Assembly: GCA_964438515.1 (NCBI GenBank)
Contig: CAYTLK010000003.1
Span: forward strand, 20,195-84,194
Reading direction: 5' to 3'
Origin: an uncultured Planctomycetaceae bacterium
Lineage (GTDB): Bacteria > Planctomycetota > Planctomycetia > Pirellulales > Thermoguttaceae
Length of the DNA: 64,000 nucleotides
Part shown: positions 7,522-62,880 of the stretch, in pieces
Layout of the letters: every line of letters starts with the position of its first letter
Numbering within the stretch: position 1 is the stretch's first letter
The notes under the pieces: generated by a model
What the model was told of the DNA's origin: nothing
Database searches by the model: none
The model's input: the letters and a program-made list of their open reading frames with translations, nothing else
Position numbers and translations under genes: made by a program

Positions 7522-10500
7522 TTATTCGTACGGAATCCTTTTTTCCACGCCGAACTGCACCTTTACAGGCCCAATCAGTCCGGAAGGCGTCAGTTTGTCC
7601 GCGGCGAAAAACCCCTGATACCGCTTAAACCCGTTGTCGGTCGGAAGCAAAAAGACGTTCGTACGACTGATTCTTTCCTCTTTTTTGCACGCCGCATCGC
7701 CGATGAGACGATTCGCCCAAACGTTCGTCACGTCGATTTCGACCGTATTTTCCCCTTCTTTAAGAAAATCCGTCAGATCCGCAACCCACGGCGCCGTCCA
7801 CACGATCCCCGCATTTTTCCCGTTGATTCGAATGCTCGCAGTGTGATTCACCTCACCGAGGGACAGACGGACCGAATGTTTCAACGCCTCGTCGGAAACC
7901 GTAAATTTTTTGGTGTACGTGCAGGTTCCAGAGAAAAAACGGATTCCCGGATCTTCATTTTCGTTCCAATACGTCAGAGTGTCGAAATGCACGTCTCCCT
8001 CCGGAGCGCCCAAATTCGGCGCGAATCGCAGCGTCCAATCGCGTGAAAGGTCGATTTCTTCCGGAAATTCCGCCTCCGAAACCTCCAGCAGCTTTTCCTC
8101 TCCCTTTGAGTTTGTTAGAATATACCGAACAGGGGTCCAAAATCGGAATTTCAATCCGTTCTGACCGTTCAGTCCGTTCTGACCGTTCAATCCGTTCGGA
8201 ACTTTCTGACCGTCCGAATCGTCCGAATCCCAGTCAAAAGAAGACGAAATGTCTGCCAAAATGCCGCGAATGGACGTAAAATGTTGGGCCGCGCACAAAC
8301 AGTTCGTTTTGCGGAACGTCACGAATGCGGAACCGTTGACCGCAAGCGGAAGCGTGACGCGTGTGCGGCCGTCCCCCAGCCCCGAATATGCGAGAGCCGG
8401 ACGCGTTTCATCCGTAAGCGGGTCGTAAATCTCCGGAATTCCTGACGCACGAAATACGGCGTCGATCGTTCCGCTTCCCGCCACAAAATATCGGTCTTCC
8501 GACGCATCTTCCAAATGAATATAGTGCGCGTCCCCCTCAAAATCCGGCAGAATTTTCTCCGAATTCAGCACCTCTTCCATCGAAACGTTTCGATAAATAC
8601 GTCCTTTTCCGACCTGAATGAAATTTGTACTTGAATCCGTGTTTTTCCACAGTCTTCCGCACACGTCCGCCAGACGCGCGTCACGCTGGGAAAAGCTGCG
8701 CAGCCCGGGATTCCGTTGGGGAATATTCTCGCCCAGCACCACAACGGCCCCGGCTTCCGCCAGTTTCAGCGCCTTTTCCAGCGCTTCCACCGGAATCGGT
8801 TCGCCCTTCAGAGGGTCGATGACGAGGATTTTGTAACTCATTCCGTGCGGCAAAACGAGCCGACGGTCGCTTTCTCGGAACGCCAGACGATTCACAAGCA
8901 CGTTCGTGTCGAGCAAATCGTACTTCCATCCCGCACCGGGAACGAGTTTCGAATCGGGATTCCACGACTCGCCGTGTCCCCATCCGATGTAATTTTTATC
9001 ACTCGTATAGACGCAGACGTCCGCGACGTACGTTCCCGTCCGCAGGCGTTTCTGACAGAGTTCAATGTACCGGAAAATCCCCGACGATTCGTTCCACCAT
9101 GTAACATTTGTGTTGATGTGCGTTCCGGCAAAATACTCGAATCCGGGACGCCCCAGCTCGGTCGGCGACGCAGTGAAAGTGTGCCAGATGAACATGTTCG
9201 CACCATCCGCAAAGTTTTCGTCTGCCGCCGGCTTCAAATGCGCGGGATACTGCGACCAATGATGCACCATGTGCGTGAAAGATTCCATCGAAACAAGCGT
9301 TTTTCCGTAAATGTGCGCCGCCATGGAGGCGTAACGGGCGTTGCTGCGCGTGAGGGGCCAAACGTACGGCTTCGTCGTCGGTTCTTTCGGCTCGGAGACC
9401 CAAAATTCGCCCTGAATCACATCGTTCTGCCCCCAAAACGTCAGCATGTCGGCTTCCGCAAACAGCTTAAAATTCCCCATCCACGCATTTTTCCCGCGCG
9501 ACCAAGGTCCGCCGTCCTCGGAGTGCCAGACCATTCCATGTTTTTCGCAGAGTTCCCCGATCGTGAGGTAGCAATTTTCCCGAAATGCGTCGCTCACCGT
9601 CCGGAAATAATCCTCACAGAAACGCCGTGACGCCTCCTCACCGCCCAGAATCAGTCCGCGAAGAATCGGAAGTTTCGTCACGAGTTCGTAACCGTTCTGT
9701 TTTTCAAAACGCTCCGCAAAACCCGGCGTCCAGTTCGGGTCGGAACCCTCCCAGCTGACGTTGTAAAAGTGCGTCAGCGTCTTTCCGCGGCCCGCCAAAT
9801 CGCCGACATCGCCGAGAATTTGCCCGCACATGAGTCCAAAATAGCGCGTCACGGCCTCCCGACTCAAAATATCCACACTTCCAACGTCACCAACCACGCG
9901 CGACCCAAACCGCAAAATCTTCCAGGAACCCTCCGGAACATCCCACCGCAGTGTTTTTGTACAGTTTTCATCTGTCTGTACAAAATTCTTCAAATCGACG
10001 ACACTTTGCGCGTCGGCAGTCGGAGCGTCTTCGGCGGGAGTTGCGGCTCGGCCCCACGTCTCGTTGAGTTTCACCGCCTCGCGTCCCTCTGAAACCTGCG
10101 ACGTAATTCTTACTGCCGCAATCGCAACGTCTTCAAAAAACCGTTCTTCGGACGGAATCTCAAGCGGAATTTCGACCGTTTTCGGACCGTTTACGTTTTC
10201 TTCCGTCCAAATCAGTTCTTTCGGCCCGTCTTTTCCCAAATCCCATGGTCCGCGCAGCTGTCCGCCGGTATTTGCGATATTCATACTCACGTGCATCCCC
10301 AGCCGATGCGCTTCTTTCACGAGGTGCGTCACCATCCGCCGCCAGTCGGGACTCATGTATTCGTACTTGATTTCGAGTGGCACCGGCACATGTTTGGTCG
10401 TGTTTACGTCGTCGTAATATCCGCGCGAATCGACGAGCAGAACCCCTCCGATTCCTTTTGAGTGCATTGCTTCGAGGTCGCGCGTAATGAGTTCTTCCGA

Positions 10501-10683
10501 AACATTCCCCTTGAGCCACCAATAATAGACCCACACCCTTGAATCCTCGCCGCTTGCGAGCCGTGAATCACCGTAAATTTTTGAGGATTCCGCGATTTTT
10601 GCATCTTTCGCGCACAAAAAAACGTTCGCAATCATCAAACTGAGGAATGCCGTCCACAAAATAAAAACCTTTTTTCTCCGCAT
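7522..10683 (-). CDS. secreted glycoside hydrolase, GH106-like (rhamnosidase-like) with C-terminal galactose-binding-like module
   Basis: Signal peptide MRRKKVFILWTAFLSLMIANVFLCA. The N-terminal block is YYWWLKGNVSEELITRDLEAMHSKGIGGVLLVDSRGYY. The C-terminal block is FSGTCTYTKKFTV...IRINGKNAGIVWTAPW...NVWANRLIGD. The family call is from memory only. Confidence 0.6.
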   Translation of the reverse strand: MRRKKVFILWTAFLSLMIANVFLCAKDAKIAESSKIYGDSRLASGEDSRVWVYYWWLKGNVSEELITRDLEAMHSKGIGGVLLVDSRGYYDDVNTTKHVPVPLEIKYEYMSPDWRRMVTHLVKEAHRLGMHVSMNIANTGGQLRGPWDLGKDGPKELIWTEENVNGPKTVEIPLEIPSEERFFEDVAIAAVRITSQVSEGREAVKLNETWGRAATPAEDAPTADAQSVVDLKNFVQTDENCTKTLRWDVPEGSWKILRFGSRVVGDVGSVDILSREAVTRYFGLMCGQILGDVGDLAGRGKTLTHFYNVSWEGSDPNWTPGFAERFEKQNGYELVTKLPILRGLILGGEEASRRFCEDYFRTVSDAFRENCYLTIGELCEKHGMVWHSEDGGPWSRGKNAWMGNFKLFAEADMLTFWGQNDVIQGEFWVSEPKEPTTKPYVWPLTRSNARYASMAAHIYGKTLVSMESFTHMVHHWSQYPAHLKPAADENFADGANMFIWHTFTASPTELGRPGFEYFAGTHINTNVTWWNESSGIFRYIELCQKRLRTGTYVADVCVYTSDKNYIGWGHGESWNPDSKLVPGAGWKYDLLDTNVLVNRLAFRESDRRLVLPHGMSYKILVIDPLKGEPIPVEALEKALKLAEAGAVVVLGENIPQRNPGLRSFSQRDARLADVCGRLWKNTDSSTNFIQVGKGRIYRNVSMEEVLNSEKILPDFEGDAHYIHLEDASEDRYFVAGSGTIDAVFRASGIPEIYDPLTDETRPALAYSGLGDGRTRVTLPLAVNGSAFVTFRKTNCLCAAQHFTSIRGILADISSSFDWDSDDSDGQKVPNGLNGQNGLNGQNGLKFRFWTPVRYILTNSKGEEKLLEVSEAEFPEEIDLSRDWTLRFAPNLGAPEGDVHFDTLTYWNENEDPGIRFFSGTCTYTKKFTVSDEALKHSVRLSLGEVNHTASIRINGKNAGIVWTAPWVADLTDFLKEGENTVEIDVTNVWANRLIGDAACKKEERISRTNVFLLPTDNGFKRYQGFFAADKLTPSGLIGPVKVQFGVEKRIPYE
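8152..8200 (-). repeat. in-frame 18-nt tandem repeat (about 2.7 units) inside the GH106-like gene
   Basis: caatccgttctgaccgtt / cagtccgttctgaccgtt / caatccgttcgga encodes PNGLNGQNGLNGQNGLK on the minus strand. Confidence 0.85.
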
Positions 10684-57027: not shown

Positions 57028-57600
57028 ATGAAGGTCTTCACAACTGGTCAGGTTGCCAAAATTTGTAAGGTGGCCCCGCGTACCGTTAGCAAGTGGTTTG
57101 ATTCAGGCCGACTTAAAGGGTATCGTATTCCAGGATCACAAGATCGTCGTATTCCGCGTGAATACCTGATCAAGTTCCTTAAAGAACACGGAATGCCCAC
57201 GACGGAACTAGAGGACGAAGCCGTTGCCAAAGTTTTGGTAGTCGCACAGGACCAAGTTCTTATCGAGAATCTTCGGCGTGAACTTCCTATTGAACGTCAG
57301 TTCAAGGTTGAAGTCGCCGCAAGCGGTTTTGATGCGGGCATCCAGGCGGAAAGTTTCCATCCTGACTGCATTATTGTCGATTTTTCGATCGGCAGAACAG
57401 AAGCGTTGCAGATTTGTCAAAATCTGCGCCGCAACGACGAATTCACTGACATTATTCTTATTGCTCTCCTGCCGGACGATGGCAGCGCAAACAATTTCGA
57501 TCGTTCCACCATCAATGAAACGTTCCGAAAACCGTTTGATGCTTCCTTGCTGGCCGAGCGTTTGAAAACCTTGGTTGGTGTCAGAAAAGAGTTGGTCTGA
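57028..57600 (+). CDS. DNA-binding regulator: N-terminal excisionase/MerR-type HTH plus C-terminal (degenerate) receiver domain
   Basis: FTTGQVAKICKVAPRTVSKWFDSGRLKGYRIPGSQDRRIPREYLIKFL is an HTH_17/excisionase-like pattern. The C-terminal (beta-alpha)5 receiver pattern is KVLVVAQDQ...DCIIVDFSIG...IILIALL...FRKPF. Confidence 0.7.
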   Translation: MKVFTTGQVAKICKVAPRTVSKWFDSGRLKGYRIPGSQDRRIPREYLIKFLKEHGMPTTELEDEAVAKVLVVAQDQVLIENLRRELPIERQFKVEVAASGFDAGIQAESFHPDCIIVDFSIGRTEALQICQNLRRNDEFTDIILIALLPDDGSANNFDRSTINETFRKPFDASLLAERLKTLVGVRKELV

Positions 57601-57680: not shown

Positions 57681-57710
57681 AAAAGTCGGCTTGTCCGACT
57701 TTTTCTTTTT
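57681..57710 (+). terminator. rho-independent terminator after the HTH-receiver gene
   Basis: aaaagtcgg (57681-57689) / ccgactttt (57695-57703), running into tttttcttttt. Confidence 0.7.
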
Positions 57711-57925: not shown

Positions 57926-57953
57926 TTGATTATTTCAAAAAATGACATATACT
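57926..57953 (+). promoter_or_regulatory. sigma70-like promoter candidate for the coiled-coil module
   Basis: TTGATT (57926-57931), 16-nt spacer, TATACT (57948-57953); about 125 nt upstream of the ATG at 58080. Confidence 0.35.
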
Positions 57954-58079
57954 ATAAGTAGTGATTCCGCGAAAACGGAAGTCTAGGACCTTCGAATGCA
58001 TCCGGTCCCATTCGTAACACAGCTCCGCATTTCCTCTGTCCGGTCCGGGCAGGATTGACATATATTGGAGAACGGCTCA

Positions 58080-58634
58080 ATGAAGAACCTGTTTGGCAAG
58101 ACGTTAGTCGTGTTGATTTTTACCTTTAGCCTCGCGCTGCTTTCCATGTCGGGAATCGTCTACATGACGCACACAGACTGGCGTGCCCGTGCGGAAGCGC
58201 TGGAAAAAGACGTTCAGGCGGCAAGCAAAAAGATTGAAGGCGACGGAACCCAGGTCGGTTACAGAGCACAAAACATCCAGCTCAAGCACGCTGTCGAAGA
58301 CGAAGAAGCCCTGCGTCTCCAAGTCGTCGGCGCTCTTGAATCAGAGGTCAAAAATCGACAGGCGGAATACGACGGCTATCAGGAACTGGTTCAGAAACAG
58401 GACAAAGAACTGCGTACGCATGTGAACGAAATGACGCGCTACACTCTGGCGCTGCTGAAACTCCGTGTGACTGCGGACGACACGCTGATTCGTATGCAGA
58501 ACGAAAGAAACGAAAGAATCCGTTCCGTACATGAATATGTTCGAAACATGAATCAAATCGAAGATTTGTCGCAGCAAATTCAAACACTCGAAAAACGTGC
58601 GCGAGGCCTGACGCTAAGCCGTACCAAACAGTAA
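58080..58634 (+). CDS. N-terminally membrane-anchored coiled-coil protein (paralog 1)
   Basis: The ATG at 58080 has GGAG 9 nt upstream. MKNLFGKTLVVLIFTFSLALLSMSGIVYMTHTDW is a single TM segment. The remainder is heptad-like and E/K/Q/R-rich. Confidence 0.55.
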   Translation: MKNLFGKTLVVLIFTFSLALLSMSGIVYMTHTDWRARAEALEKDVQAASKKIEGDGTQVGYRAQNIQLKHAVEDEEALRLQVVGALESEVKNRQAEYDGYQELVQKQDKELRTHVNEMTRYTLALLKLRVTADDTLIRMQNERNERIRSVHEYVRNMNQIEDLSQQIQTLEKRARGLTLSRTKQ

Positions 58635-58719
58635 TCGTTCCCGCGTTTTCCCAAATATCGAACTTTCGCCAATCGGCGCTTTCGGGCGCATAAAGATTTA
58701 AAGTATAAAAAGGACTCCC

Positions 58720-59586
58720 ATGAATCTGGTTGGAAAAATTTTTGTCGTACTCATATTCGTTTTGAGTCTGGTTTTGATGACACTTACGGTGGCCGTCTAT
58801 ATGACTCAAAATAACTGGCGTATTATGGTTGATAATACGGACACGAGTAAAGGGTATCCCAAAGGTCTGCGCCAGCAGAACGAAGATCTTCAAAAAGAAA
58901 ATCAGGAACTTCGAAACGCCTATGCGGTCTTGGTCGGCAACTACGAGGTTGCTTTCCAGAAAAGTACGAACGCACAGTCGGAAGTACTGGTCGTCAGAGA
59001 CACTCAAAATACGCAGGTCTCCACATTGAAGGAAACCATCGAAACCACCTACGCCGACACGAACACGCGTCTGGATGCAACCCATCAGGCTCTCGTAACC
59101 ATCGTGAGCGGCCACTCGCTCCTGAGGGACGCCGTTAAGGGCCTTCAGCGCGAAATTACCGACATCTCCGACAAACTGGCGGATAAAACGGACTATATGA
59201 ACCAGATTACGCAGCTGGAACGCCGCAACAAAGAACTGGAAGCCCGAAATAACGACCTGAAAAACGAAAACGTCCTGGCAAACGAAGTTCTTACGTATAA
59301 TAATATGATGAACAATCTCGATTATTATCGTACGCAGTCCGCACCAGTCGGTCTTCAGGGCCGCGTCCTCGATCAAGCCGGTCGGAAAATCGTCGTGAAC
59401 GTCGGAAGCGACGACGGAGTGCGAATCGGTCATAAATTCAAACTCCTCTCGAAAGATGGAAGTACGTATCTCTGCGATGTCGAAGTGGAACAAGTGACGC
59501 CCGACACTGCAACCTGCGTATTTTCCAATCTGCGGAGTGAACAGAGTATTAATGTAATTCCGGGCTGTGTTGTAAAACCTTTGTAA
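58720..59586 (+). CDS. N-terminally membrane-anchored coiled-coil protein (paralog 2) with small C-terminal beta-rich domain
   Basis: MNLVGKIFVVLIFVLSLVLMTLTVAVYMTQNNW is homologous to the N-terminus of the preceding gene. A long coiled coil follows. The C-terminus is GRVLDQAGRKIVVNVGSDDGVRIGHKFKLL...VEVEQVTPDTATCVF. Confidence 0.55.
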   Translation: MNLVGKIFVVLIFVLSLVLMTLTVAVYMTQNNWRIMVDNTDTSKGYPKGLRQQNEDLQKENQELRNAYAVLVGNYEVAFQKSTNAQSEVLVVRDTQNTQVSTLKETIETTYADTNTRLDATHQALVTIVSGHSLLRDAVKGLQREITDISDKLADKTDYMNQITQLERRNKELEARNNDLKNENVLANEVLTYNNMMNNLDYYRTQSAPVGLQGRVLDQAGRKIVVNVGSDDGVRIGHKFKLLSKDGSTYLCDVEVEQVTPDTATCVFSNLRSEQSINVIPGCVVKPL

Positions 59587-59599
59587 GCGGGGGGAAACT

Positions 59600-60028
59600 A
59601 TGAGCAACGAAAATGATGACCTCCTTCCGGATGACGACATGATGAACATGGAGCCGATCGACGACGGCAACGACTCGGACGACCCTTTTGCACAGCCTGC
59701 AGAAGAAAGTCTCGAAGGGGCGGAATCTTCCGATGAATCTGCGCAGACGGACGAGAACGCCGTTGCGGATGGTGAGGAAGCGCCGGAAGAAAGTTCCGAA
59801 GAACCTGAATTTCAGGGAAATGAGGGAGACGCAGAAGACGTTGAGGAAACGAAAGAAATCGTTTATCGTCCTCCTCATATGGATTTGTACACGGTTTTGC
59901 TCGTTTTGGCGCTCATTTTTGTGAGTTTGGCGGCCACGCTGCACTATCTGGAAGTTCCCGCTTCGGAATACGGAAACGTTCCCTTCAAAAAAGGAAGTCC
60001 GCGCGTTACCGCACCGGCAAACCCATAG
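59600..60028 (+). CDS. acidic intrinsically-disordered protein with C-terminal transmembrane segment (tail-anchored)
   Basis: The ATG is 13 nt after the previous stop and is preceded by GGGGGG. About 90 aa are D/E-rich, followed by LYTVLLVLALIFVSLAATLHYL. Confidence 0.45.
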   Translation: MSNENDDLLPDDDMMNMEPIDDGNDSDDPFAQPAEESLEGAESSDESAQTDENAVADGEEAPEESSEEPEFQGNEGDAEDVEETKEIVYRPPHMDLYTVLLVLALIFVSLAATLHYLEVPASEYGNVPFKKGSPRVTAPANP

Positions 60029-60063
60029 TTCTTACAGAAATTTGAAACCGAAAAAAACAGCGG

Positions 60064-60100
60064 CTTGTGAAATGTCCTCGTTCACAAGTCGTTGTTTTTT
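60064..60100. terminator. terminator hairpin between convergent genes
   Basis: cttgtgaa (60064-60071) / ttcacaag (60081-60088), followed by gttgtttttt. Confidence 0.6.
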
Positions 60101-60126
60101 ATTCTTTGGGAGACTTTCCGAACGTT

Positions 60127-62880
60127 TTACCGCCTCACCCCTTCGAGTTTCCGCTGATATTGCGCCTTTTCATATTCGTCGCCCGTAAATTCCATGAGTT
60201 CAATCATATTTTTGTACGGAATTTCTAACTGAAATTTGTCTTCCGGGTGCGCGTCCGCATGATGTTCCAAACAGAAAATCCCCGTCTTCAATAATGTAAT
60301 CGCCCGTTTCGTGTTTCCGATCTCCGCATACGAAACGCTCATTCCGTTGACGATGACTCCCAACTGCAGTAGATCACGAAGCTGCTTGCTTTTAATCACC
60401 GTCATCAAATGCGGAATAGATTTTTCGTACCATTTTACCGCCTCTTTATGGGCTTCGAGCGATGCGTTCGCGTCCGATTTTTCGCTTTCCTGTTCCGCTT
60501 GCAGCGCATAAATCTGACCAAAATGGTAGTAAAGCTGCGCAAGAAGGAAGGTTTCATCTGAAGAAACGTCTTTCTTTTTCGTTTGAACAAGTTCCATCAT
60601 GGAAATCGCCCGCTGCAAAAAACGGTTTGCAGCGTCAAATTTCCCCGAAAGCATACAAAGACTCGCCGCATCGTCCAAAACGGAAGCGGATTTTGTGCAT
60701 ATTTCATAATATCGTGCGGCACTTTTCACCGTTTTGAGCATTTCCATTGAGGCGCTTAAAAAAGAATCCGCATATGGAACGATTTTCTCCTGATTTTTCA
60801 GCGTAATTTCAATAGCCGTAACTCGGTACAATATTCGATATTTCAAAATCGTACAGGTATCCGCCCCCCCGGCGTCTTCTTTTGTTGCTTCCGTCAGCTC
60901 GGTCATTACTTTTTGGAGCCATTTTTCCGTATTTTCTTCTTTTTTATCCCACGGTCCCGACGCGATGTCGGCCGCGATTCCCAGCCAGGCGTCCATTCTC
61001 AGCTCTTTTACACGCTGTTTTTCGCCGACTATCAAAGAATATTTACGGCCGCCGATAAATTTTCCTGCTTCCAAAAGCGCGTCCGCCTGCTGCGCCGCAC
61101 GACGGTGGCACTGAAACGCGTGAGCCGCATCCGGAGTCGGAAGAATCATCTGAATATCCCCCTCTACGATATTTGCACGAAATGCAATCATCGGATTATC
61201 GAGAAATTTCTTCCGAACTTCTTCGAGGAGTTCCGACGCCTGTTCGAAATTCCCGCGACGTGCGAGATATTCAATCTTTTCGAATAAATCGTCCTGAAAC
61301 GAAAGCTCCAACGGCAAACTTTCCTCATTTTGTCCCTCTGATTCCTCTTTAACGTCCGGATTCACAGGTTCCTGCAGCGTTTCCATTTCATCTTCCAACG
61401 ATTCTGGAATCTCCAGCGCCGGCTCGCGCTCAACCGATTCCGCAGTCGGTTCCGTTTCATCGAGTTCCTCGGAACTCAACGACGGCGGCAAAACGTTCGA
61501 ACCTTCTTCAACGTCAGAATCGATTTTCGTCCCAGTTTCTGACGTACGCTGCATCTCAGCCGCAAGATCCGCCACACCATCCTCCGCAGCCGTTTCTGTA
61601 TCCGTCCCGCTTTCCGGTTCCGCAACCGGTTCCGCAGCCGATTCCGCAGCCGGTTCCACAGCCGATTCCGACTCTTTTTCCTCTGTTTTTTCCTCTACAT
61701 TTTCAGGAAGTTCCTCCGACGAAGCACCCGCGTCCGAAGACGAAGACGGTGAATCATCCGCAAAAGAATCAATCATCGGAGCGTCCAAATGCGTCACATC
61801 CGTTTCGTCGTCCTCTGATTTCGGCTCCATTTCCGGCGCTGCGTCTTGCATACTCGATACATTTTCTTCATTTTGTGCAATTTCTTCAGATTCTTCCGAC
61901 ACAGACTCCCCAGACGTCCCAGATTCTCCACTTTTTCCCTTCACGAGTTCTGGAACGGCTTCCTCCAGCACTTTTTTATACGCCAAAGCCTGTTCATTTT
62001 TGGGGTCGAGTTTCAAAGCCTGCAAAATGTCCGCATGCGAGCGAGCCGGATCGACATCGACCCACGTTTCCGCACGCTGCAAAAAGGGTTCAGGACCCAC
62101 AGGCTGAAAAATAATTTGAACCACATTCATCGGAATGGCTTCCGGATTTTTCTCGAAATCCGACGCGTTTCCCAATTTGTCCTTGGGGTCGTACGCGAAC
62201 GCCACTCCGATTTCCGGAAAAATCTCCCCGTGAATCGTACCCTTTTCATCCGTCAAAAAAACGGACTGAATATGTGCAATTTCGAGCTGCGTTGCGAGTT
62301 CCCGAGCGTTGAGGCTCTTCTGAAGCTCCGCAATCACCGCAAAAACCGTCTTTTTCATAATATGAAAAGCGACTCCGTTGAACCCTTCCAACGAATATTC
62401 TTCAACATCAATTCCCTCGCCGCCCGCATTTTTTTGCACGTTTGCTGGCTTTCCGAAGGCCTTGTGCAATTCCTCAATTGAAGTTTTTCCCGGAATAATT
62501 CCATTGAATGCTGCTGTTTCTACCGGAATCACCATCTCCGCCGCCGCTGCAGGGGATTCCGATGAAGCGCCGTTAGATGAAGATGCAGGAACTGAAGCTG
62601 AAAGGGCTGGTGAATCTGCGGAAGTTGAAGAATCTGTGGGTTTTGAGGCGGCGGGGCGAGTTGAGGGCGCTGCGGAAGTTTCTTCGGCGCCCGCGATACG
62701 AATTGGCGGGAGTTTTTCCTCACTTTGCGCCTGAGCGCGTACCGCAAACAAAAAAATGACGGAAAAAAGGACCAAAACAAGAAAAATACCGCCCCACGTC
62801 CAAGCGTCGTTTTCGCTGGAGGACTCCATTTCAAACTGACTGTATTTTCGATTAAGACTCATTTTACACACCATTTCCAT
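60127..62880 (-). CDS. membrane-anchored hypothetical protein with acidic low-complexity centre and TPR-like helical-repeat C-terminal region
   Basis: TM segment WGGIFLVLVLFSVIFLFAV. The central region is E/S/A/P-rich (AAESAAEPVAEPESGTDTE). The C-terminal ~380 aa have paired-helix repeats (AQLYYHFGQIYALQAE..., KAVKWYEKSIP...). The start is ambiguous (62880, 62874 or 62862). Confidence 0.5.
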   Translation of the reverse strand: MEMVCKMSLNRKYSQFEMESSSENDAWTWGGIFLVLVLFSVIFLFAVRAQAQSEEKLPPIRIAGAEETSAAPSTRPAASKPTDSSTSADSPALSASVPASSSNGASSESPAAAAEMVIPVETAAFNGIIPGKTSIEELHKAFGKPANVQKNAGGEGIDVEEYSLEGFNGVAFHIMKKTVFAVIAELQKSLNARELATQLEIAHIQSVFLTDEKGTIHGEIFPEIGVAFAYDPKDKLGNASDFEKNPEAIPMNVVQIIFQPVGPEPFLQRAETWVDVDPARSHADILQALKLDPKNEQALAYKKVLEEAVPELVKGKSGESGTSGESVSEESEEIAQNEENVSSMQDAAPEMEPKSEDDETDVTHLDAPMIDSFADDSPSSSSDAGASSEELPENVEEKTEEKESESAVEPAAESAAEPVAEPESGTDTETAAEDGVADLAAEMQRTSETGTKIDSDVEEGSNVLPPSLSSEELDETEPTAESVEREPALEIPESLEDEMETLQEPVNPDVKEESEGQNEESLPLELSFQDDLFEKIEYLARRGNFEQASELLEEVRKKFLDNPMIAFRANIVEGDIQMILPTPDAAHAFQCHRRAAQQADALLEAGKFIGGRKYSLIVGEKQRVKELRMDAWLGIAADIASGPWDKKEENTEKWLQKVMTELTEATKEDAGGADTCTILKYRILYRVTAIEITLKNQEKIVPYADSFLSASMEMLKTVKSAARYYEICTKSASVLDDAASLCMLSGKFDAANRFLQRAISMMELVQTKKKDVSSDETFLLAQLYYHFGQIYALQAEQESEKSDANASLEAHKEAVKWYEKSIPHLMTVIKSKQLRDLLQLGVIVNGMSVSYAEIGNTKRAITLLKTGIFCLEHHADAHPEDKFQLEIPYKNMIELMEFTGDEYEKAQYQRKLEGVRR

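Follow-up and report, generated by a model that had tools for sequence, protein, structure and literature searches.

A two-gene envelope module of Planctomycetota, often found upstream of mreBCD and kept in a gut lineage that lost these shape genes

What is the role of three short genes that follow each other closely in the genome of an uncultured planctomycete and resemble no described system? We addressed this question in a stretch of 64,000 nucleotides (nt), hereafter the window, from an uncultured Planctomycetaceae bacterium (contig CAYTLK010000003.1, positions 20,195 to 84,194; C3:20195-84194 of genome G000 in our numbering, which is 90% complete). Three open reading frames (ORFs) on its + strand, at 58080-58634, 58720-59586 and 59600-60028, encode proteins of 184, 288 and 142 amino acids (aa) that we call g1, g2 and g3; they are separated by 85 and 13 nt, just as the original prediction, made from the letters alone, had described. 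That prediction saw in them a conserved three-gene module of PVC-type bacteria, forming an envelope-spanning or membrane-associated structural assembly. We find that g2 and g3 are a real, conserved and uncharacterised envelope module. Conservation holds throughout the sampled Planctomycetota but not for three genes: judging by sequence comparison, the conserved unit is the pair g2 and g3, and it is near-universal in the phylum.

The g2 protein comprises an N-terminal anchor, a coiled-coil stalk and a small C-terminal beta-barrel. The anchor (58720..58821, + strand; pattern MNLVGKIFVVL...Y.T..NW) holds the densest run of invariant family positions: in an alignment of 24 sequences, with overall identity down to 20%, it accounts for nine of the 13 invariant positions (M1, N2, L3, V4, G5, F8, V10, N32 and W33). 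An AlphaFold2 model built on this alignment has a mean predicted local distance difference test score (pLDDT) of 86, with a helix at residues 3-38, an uninterrupted helix at 50-193 and a beta domain at 214-287, in agreement with the small beta-rich C-terminal domain originally proposed. The stalk (residues 50-193; 58867..59298, +) is modelled as a single helix at pLDDT 90-97 and would measure about 21 nm if straight throughout; its hydrophobic periodicity peaks at 3.55 residues, a value reached in 14 of 2000 shuffles.

The barrel (59359..59583, +; six strands, motif GSDDGV) rests on the AlphaFold2 model, on Foldseek and on sub-threshold matches to FlgT_C. Within it G229, D231 and G233 are invariant and the G-x-D-D-G motif is conserved. 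Foldseek matched it to the Vibrio flagellar protein FlgT (8z5n and 3w1e, E 4e-4 to 9e-4) and to the N-terminal crown barrels of F1 and V1 ATPases (best fold matches overall, E 4e-4 to 4e-3). Pfam FlgT_C aligned to g2 through the first 47 of its 77 positions and scored 20.6 bits (cut-off 27), and sub-threshold FlgT_C matches in several other family members agree with the fold search. The original prediction recognised neither a known family nor an enzymatic motif, and this has stood: in scans of g1, g2 and g3, no Pfam or NCBIfam family cut-off was reached, nothing beyond coiled-coil noise or sub-threshold matches came from Pfam, NCBIfam, PADLOC and PHROGs, and g2 failed every test of membership in the MreC, RodZ, TolA and FlgT families. 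A search of PDB sequences with the g2 family profile returned coiled-coil proteins, plus Listeria MreC (2j5u) at E 0.011. Some homologs bear the precomputed Pfam label PF28533.1, so that a bare family entry may already exist. We found no paper describing the g2/g3 family. By its sequence, g2 represents a new family of 273-301 aa, defined by the anchor, a coil of about 145 aa and the GSDDGV barrel. The window protein carries every invariant column and scores 340 bits against the family profile.

Searched against 1.8 billion representatives, this profile gave 770 clusters at E<=1e-30, with lengths of 273-301 aa throughout. The gene is present in 257 of 301 sampled Planctomycetota genomes (158 of the 191 of high quality) and in 39 of 41 close relatives of the window genome (all 28 of high quality). 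Four genomes missed by the profile still have a divergent anchor-coil protein and a small transmembrane (TM) protein in front of mreB, and the true prevalence of g2 is therefore higher than counted. All named matches belong to Planctomycetota, in a DNA-pattern search that was seeded on MNLVGKIF and is hence biased. The closest relatives of the window are metagenome-assembled genomes (MAGs) of ruminant-gut Thermoguttaceae.

The second member of the pair, g3, is short and likewise represents a new family; a word-based homolog search recovered it from four close relatives only. We therefore gathered the family by script from the g2 loci. A short g3 ORF lies directly after g2 or overlaps it in about 75 of 80 loci, often across the g2 stop by 22-28 nt, and 65 loci yield the consensus yRKPraDlYTvLLviaLlAil.gilfLyLEm..Y. 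The window gene, which begins 13 nt after g2, reads YRPPHMDLYTVLL...LHYLEVPASEY and has the family pattern YR(K/P)P..D.YT.LL ... L(Y/H)YLE...Y around one TM helix. Its conserved core, YRPPHMDLYTVLL...LHYLEVPASEYG (59864..60028, +), consists of a basic juxtamembrane motif, the single TM helix and a short outer tail; the basic residues before the helix indicate that the N-terminus is cytoplasmic (N-in). Preceding the core is an acidic, lineage-specific extension, predicted to be cytoplasmic (59600..59884, +). The first 95 residues contain 36 D/E and 2 K/R and are followed by one hydrophobic helix and a tail of 25-28 aa, as expected from the earlier description of a D/E-rich stretch with a single C-terminal TM helix. 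In loci that bear mreB, the N-terminal tail is mostly 16-35 aa long with a net charge of +1 to +4, within a range that reaches about 55 aa and runs from 0 to +9. Long acidic extensions, with net charges of -8 to -39, occur only in gut lineages without an adjacent mreB; these lineages are related, and the pattern thus reflects one or a few evolutionary events rather than a statistic.

The genomic position of the pair links it to the cell-shape operon. Immediately downstream of g2-g3 we found mreB in 41 of 80 named genome loci, many of which continue with mreC, mreD and pbp2 and have lnt in front. Two metagenome loci (L001 and L038) display the full order lnt-(g1-like)-g2-g3-mreB-mreC-mreD-pbp2, and g2-g3-mreB is also seen in locus L036 and at the P0033 locus. 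Among the 41 close relatives, all 12 that have both genes carry them on one strand, with g2 starting off the order and mreB lying 320-730 nt downstream. Across the phylum, about 68 of about 80 genomes for which the places of both genes were listed have g2 next to mreB in the same orientation, 150-1420 nt apart; this count comes from a by-eye comparison of the places listed for the 301-genome sample, and the non-adjacent rest are mostly on different contigs. In the family of Planctopirus, where mreB is Plim_2620, g2 does not adjoin mreB. The synteny with mreBCD-pbp2 makes g2-g3 a cell-biology candidate, which gives substance to the structural cell-biology module suggested originally. Moreover, the phylum appears to be devoid of the MreB adaptor RodZ: RodZ_C matched in none of 151 genomes of the phylum while control genomes scored, and planctomycetes have been described as lacking RodZ (PMC5147048).

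The window lineage departs from this arrangement. By tblastn, the window genome contains no MreB, MreC, MreD or PBP2; a Pfam search of it gave only Hsp70-level scores for MreB and no MreC match. Nor did it match a transpeptidase domain, a class B penicillin-binding protein (PBP), SEDS (FtsW/RodA), MurG or MraY, and only two Mur-ligase-type domains were present. Across 14 genomes of the genus, neither MreB nor a PBP turned up. The lineage thus appears unable to synthesise lipid II and peptidoglycan; that Pirellulales have lost lipid II genes is already published (PMC12283558). To judge from these gene inventories, the gut genus lost the shape genes mreBCD yet kept, and partly duplicated, the g2-g3 pair.

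The duplicate is g1 (58080..58634, +), which consists of an anchor (aa 1-35) and a heptad coiled coil (aa 36-184). A match to the g2 family profile (E 6.6e-17, profile positions 2-182) shows that g1 and g2 are paralogs. The hydrophobic periodicity of g1 residues 36-184 peaks at 3.50 residues, which none of 2000 shuffles reached. The common N-terminal anchor and heptad coil claimed for g1 and g2 are thereby confirmed, with periods of 3.50-3.55 over about 145-150 residues. In a tree built from the anchor and coil regions, the g1 clade of the genus is sister to its own g2 clade (95/92), barrel-less copies in loci L108 (100/99) and L038 (91/96) also pair with their own g2, and a further barrel-less clade, from family f3, sits on a long branch. 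Barrel-less copies that group with their own g2 indicate that truncated upstream copies arose repeatedly. On this phylogenetic evidence g1 arose within the lineage by tandem duplication of g2 and has lost the beta-barrel. The g1 coil matches the g2 stalk in length (149 versus 144 aa), which suggests that g1 and g2 may form a mixed coiled coil.

A more distant g2 paralog of 502 aa is encoded at L035:1054-2562 (G000:C17, about 9070-10578) and is conserved in Thermoguttaceae and other Planctomycetia. It has an N-terminal anchor, a long coiled coil with an Ala/Glu/Pro-rich insert, a FlgT-like barrel and an extra C-terminal alpha/beta domain of about 100 aa, for which a BRCT hint (E 0.23) was not confirmed by a fold search of the model.

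Also particular to the gut lineages without MreB is a response regulator gene beside the module (57028..57600, +), with a receiver domain (Response_reg, 44.7 bits, cut-off 30.2) and a helix-turn-helix (HTH) domain (HTH_17, 39.9 bits, cut-off 27). By tblastn it lies 450-1100 nt upstream of g1 or g2 in loci L039-L047 and L049. The block of regulator, g1, g2 and g3 is conserved in the window genus and its nearest kin, all of them gut Thermoguttaceae-like lineages, and more distant gut MAGs have the regulator, g2 and g3 without g1. Conservation of this neighbour, proposed earlier as a check, therefore holds within the gut lineages but not phylum-wide. From its position, the protein is a possible regulator of g1-g2-g3. 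A paralog of it, 37% identical, is encoded on contig C10 of the window genome. In one gut Thermoguttaceae MAG without an adjacent mreB (EPI_MAG_00019, L037/L051:8362-11874), g2-g3 are followed by a gene for a permease-like FtsX-domain protein of 1170 aa, which has no homolog in the window genome.

We suggest that g2 and g3 associate in the membrane as a two-protein complex, specific to planctomycetes, that was ancestrally a scaffold or adaptor of the elongasome, a reading to which we give a probability of about 0.45, and in which both the contact between the proteins and their role are what we infer. The conserved N-terminal helix of g2 would anchor a coiled-coil stalk of about 21 nm ending in the small barrel head. 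The single-pass g3, oriented N-in, may pack against this anchor through the conserved membrane helices, which would account for the anchors being better conserved than any other part; the conserved juxtamembrane motifs of both proteins would lie on the same membrane face if both are N-in. With the tail of g3 in the cytoplasm, a g2 stalk on the periplasmic side would bridge the space that leads to the wall and outer membrane. The ancestral operon would have read g2-g3-mreB-mreC-mreD-pbp2 next to lnt, with the pair as its first part, and in a phylum without RodZ the pair may have acted as the elongasome scaffold or adaptor. In the window genus, MreBCD and the lipid II and peptidoglycan machinery would have been lost while the pair was kept under purifying selection and remodelled: g2 gave rise to the tandem barrel-less g1, g3 gained its long acidic cytoplasmic tail, and the HTH-receiver regulator became a fixed neighbour. 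Such remodelling would fit a changed set of partners, and the complex may serve there as an MreB-independent scaffold of envelope, shape or division. Of the assembly originally proposed, the membrane anchoring, the coiled coils and the non-enzymatic character have been borne out, and the spanning of the envelope keeps its conditional standing.

RodZ offers a parallel to this proposal. It is a bitopic membrane protein tied to MreB, g3 (cytoplasmic tail and TM helix) and g2 (TM helix and outer domain) would together cover the same compartments, and the absence of RodZ from the phylum leaves the adaptor niche open. The pair differs from RodZ in being two polypeptides instead of one and in being kept without MreB, and neither an HTH family nor RodZ_C (PF13464) matches g1, g2 or g3. 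On these tests g2 works at most like RodZ, MreC, TolA or FlgT, and is a member of none of them.

Several observations weigh against an elongasome role. The pair is kept in 27 of 28 relatives that lack MreB, and family f3, of the same class, has its g1-like gene and g2 megabases away from mreB; together these imply that the function of g2-g3 cannot depend on MreB. Family f34 (small, complete planctomycete genomes; loci L122-L125 of genomes G087, G112, G062 and G169) has lnt directly before mreB without g2-g3, so that the lnt-mreB neighbourhood is older than, or independent of, the pair. Neighbours in an operon are not necessarily physical partners. In Planctopirus limnophila mreB is non-essential (PMC6952346, PMC10632474), and the role of the elongasome in the phylum is unclear. 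Finally, the charges around the g2 helix are ambiguous, with one K before it and, on average, 1.8 K/R and 1.9 D/E in the next 15 residues. We consider a periplasmic stalk and head most likely, by a modest preference over the opposite orientation.

The same observations could be read to mean that the pair is a stand-alone tether or ruler across the periplasm, comparable to TolA or Lpp, which sets the spacing or integrity of the envelope and whose synteny with mreB reflects an envelope neighbourhood only. Retention in lineages without MreB or peptidoglycan genes and the unlinked genes of family f3 would be natural in that case, as would a stalk of about 21 nm that is very constant in length, the frequent upstream position of lnt, a gene of lipoprotein maturation, and a barrel resembling a domain of a periplasmic ring protein. 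TolA is similar in plan, with an N-terminal anchor bearing conserved polar residues, a long helical domain able to cross the periplasm and a small globular C-terminal head. However, g2 has no TolA_C match and no SHLS motif spacing, and in place of tolQ, tolR, tolB or pal its gene has lnt and mreBCD, or the response regulator, beside it. The likeness to FlgT_C (PF16538; Vibrio flagellar H-ring), the best fold match of the barrel, is confined to this domain of about 75 residues (TM-score 0.22); the FlgT N and M domains are absent from g2 and the gene context is not flagellar. A tether would also need a periplasmic stalk, a location that is itself putative. The same-strand place directly upstream of mreB is kept down to about 25% identity, which goes beyond a loose neighbourhood, and we regard a simple tether as unlikely.

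We consider it similarly doubtful that g2 is oriented the other way (N-out/C-in), as an anchored cytoplasmic coiled-coil scaffold that binds MreB or another cytoskeletal or division protein, with g3 as a small membrane partner. EzrA, ZipA and YhcB (ZapG) provide the precedent: they combine a very short N-terminus, one anchor helix and a long coiled coil with a link to the cytoskeleton or envelope synthesis, although they face the cytoplasm, lack a barrel head and have no sequence relation to g2. K/R residues are slightly more frequent after the g2 helix (3.2 in 25 residues versus 1 before), the 502-aa paralog has KK directly after its anchor, the gene adjoins that of a cytoplasmic filament protein, and the barrel also matches the crown domain of F1 and V1 ATPases, which is cytoplasmic. 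On the other hand, K6 ahead of the helix hardly varies, the charges behind the helix nearly cancel out, and some members have no K/R in the 15 residues that follow it. The sub-threshold similarities of g2 are to periplasmic domains, namely MreC and FlgT_C, and its retention without MreB speaks against a dedicated MreB binder.

Far less probable is that g2 is a very divergent additional MreC, with one barrel instead of two, that activates PBP2 as MreC does. The order of anchor, coiled coil and small beta-barrel with a GxxDGV-type motif is that of MreC, the gene lies in the mreB operon, and there is a weak sequence signal: NCBIfam MreC models match at E 4e-8 to 1e-4, beside the Listeria MreC hit mentioned above. 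The best of these matches, however, scores 32.8 bits against a cut-off of 385, Pfam MreC does not match, and the top 50 fold matches include no structure of MreC. A profile-profile alignment (hhalign) with 15 planctomycete MreCs covered 33 coiled-coil columns only, at a probability of 48.7%, and on this ground we rejected g2 as an MreC paralog. The stalk of about 145 residues is much longer than that of MreC, operon position separates the two, since g2 stands upstream of mreB and the genuine MreC of these operons, which Pfam recognises, is encoded after mreB, and g2 persists where PBP2 is gone.

That the module is non-functional, consisting of chance ORFs or decaying duplicates, or that the long antisense ORF of 440 aa (58348-59670) is the real gene, is ruled out by the conserved motifs of the proteins, the phylum-wide presence of g2 and the substitution pattern. 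When g2 is compared with eight orthologs, the differences mostly affect third codon positions of the + frame (e.g., 47/35/158), and the open antisense stretch ranges from 161 to 431 aa among relatives, with 161-184 aa in two close ones. The bias together with this variability indicates that the + strand genes are real and under purifying selection, which settles in their favour the doubt originally attached to the antisense ORF.

Several sequence signals accompany the genes. Purine-rich boxes (GGAGAA, AAGGA and GGGGGA) precede the ATGs of g1, g2 and g3 by 6-9 nt, as the Shine-Dalgarno-like boxes noted earlier would require; an alternative TTG start of g1 at 58065 is less likely because MKNLFGK mirrors the N-terminus of the family. 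A terminator-like hairpin with a T-run after the regulator gene (57681..57703, +) sets the regulator apart from the transcription unit of the module. The promoter-like site TTGATT-16-TATACT (57926..57953, +) is present with 9 of 12 matches, but it is weak evidence, since the region has six such sites against 4.7 expected from shuffles and is thus not enriched. Downstream, the predicted terminator is real: a bidirectional intrinsic-terminator-like hairpin (about 60052-60101, both strands) with an A-run, a 20-bp stem and a U-run (-32.3 kcal/mol, z -4.4), common to the module and the convergent 917-aa gene (60127-62880, - strand). The 917-aa protein has a signal-anchor-like N-terminus, long Ser/Ala/Glu-rich low-complexity stretches and a weakly TPR-like C-terminal half, and its gene stands beside the module in no relative. 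Neither it nor the flanking M16 peptidase gene is shared even by relatives whose g2 is 78% identical.

Planctomycetes grow, maintain their shape and bud without FtsZ by means that have yet to be explained, and Pirellulales, Gemmatales and Isosphaerales also manage without most genes of peptidoglycan synthesis; recent papers call for an "alternative" set of proteins (PMC12283558, PMC12288469). The pair described here offers two concrete, nearly phylum-wide candidate genes. They have a defined architecture and, in a phylum without RodZ, a conserved place before mreBCD-pbp2; precisely where the canonical machinery is gone, they have been kept and remodelled. What is new is the near-universal presence, the ancestral position in front of mreBCD-pbp2, and the fact that the pair outlived this machinery in one lineage and was elaborated there. 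Since both genes are short and orthologs occur across the whole sampled class Planctomycetia, including the complete-genome family f3, tests in tractable planctomycetes may be feasible. In the boldest interpretation, which we put forward as speculative and rather improbable, g2-g3 with the g1-type copies would be a core piece of a planctomycete machinery for morphogenesis and division that is independent of FtsZ and peptidoglycan, having begun as a RodZ replacement heading mreBCD and having persisted and diversified after the loss of MreB and the wall. If the link to morphogenesis fails, the pair would still represent a large uncharacterised family of envelope proteins that deserves description.

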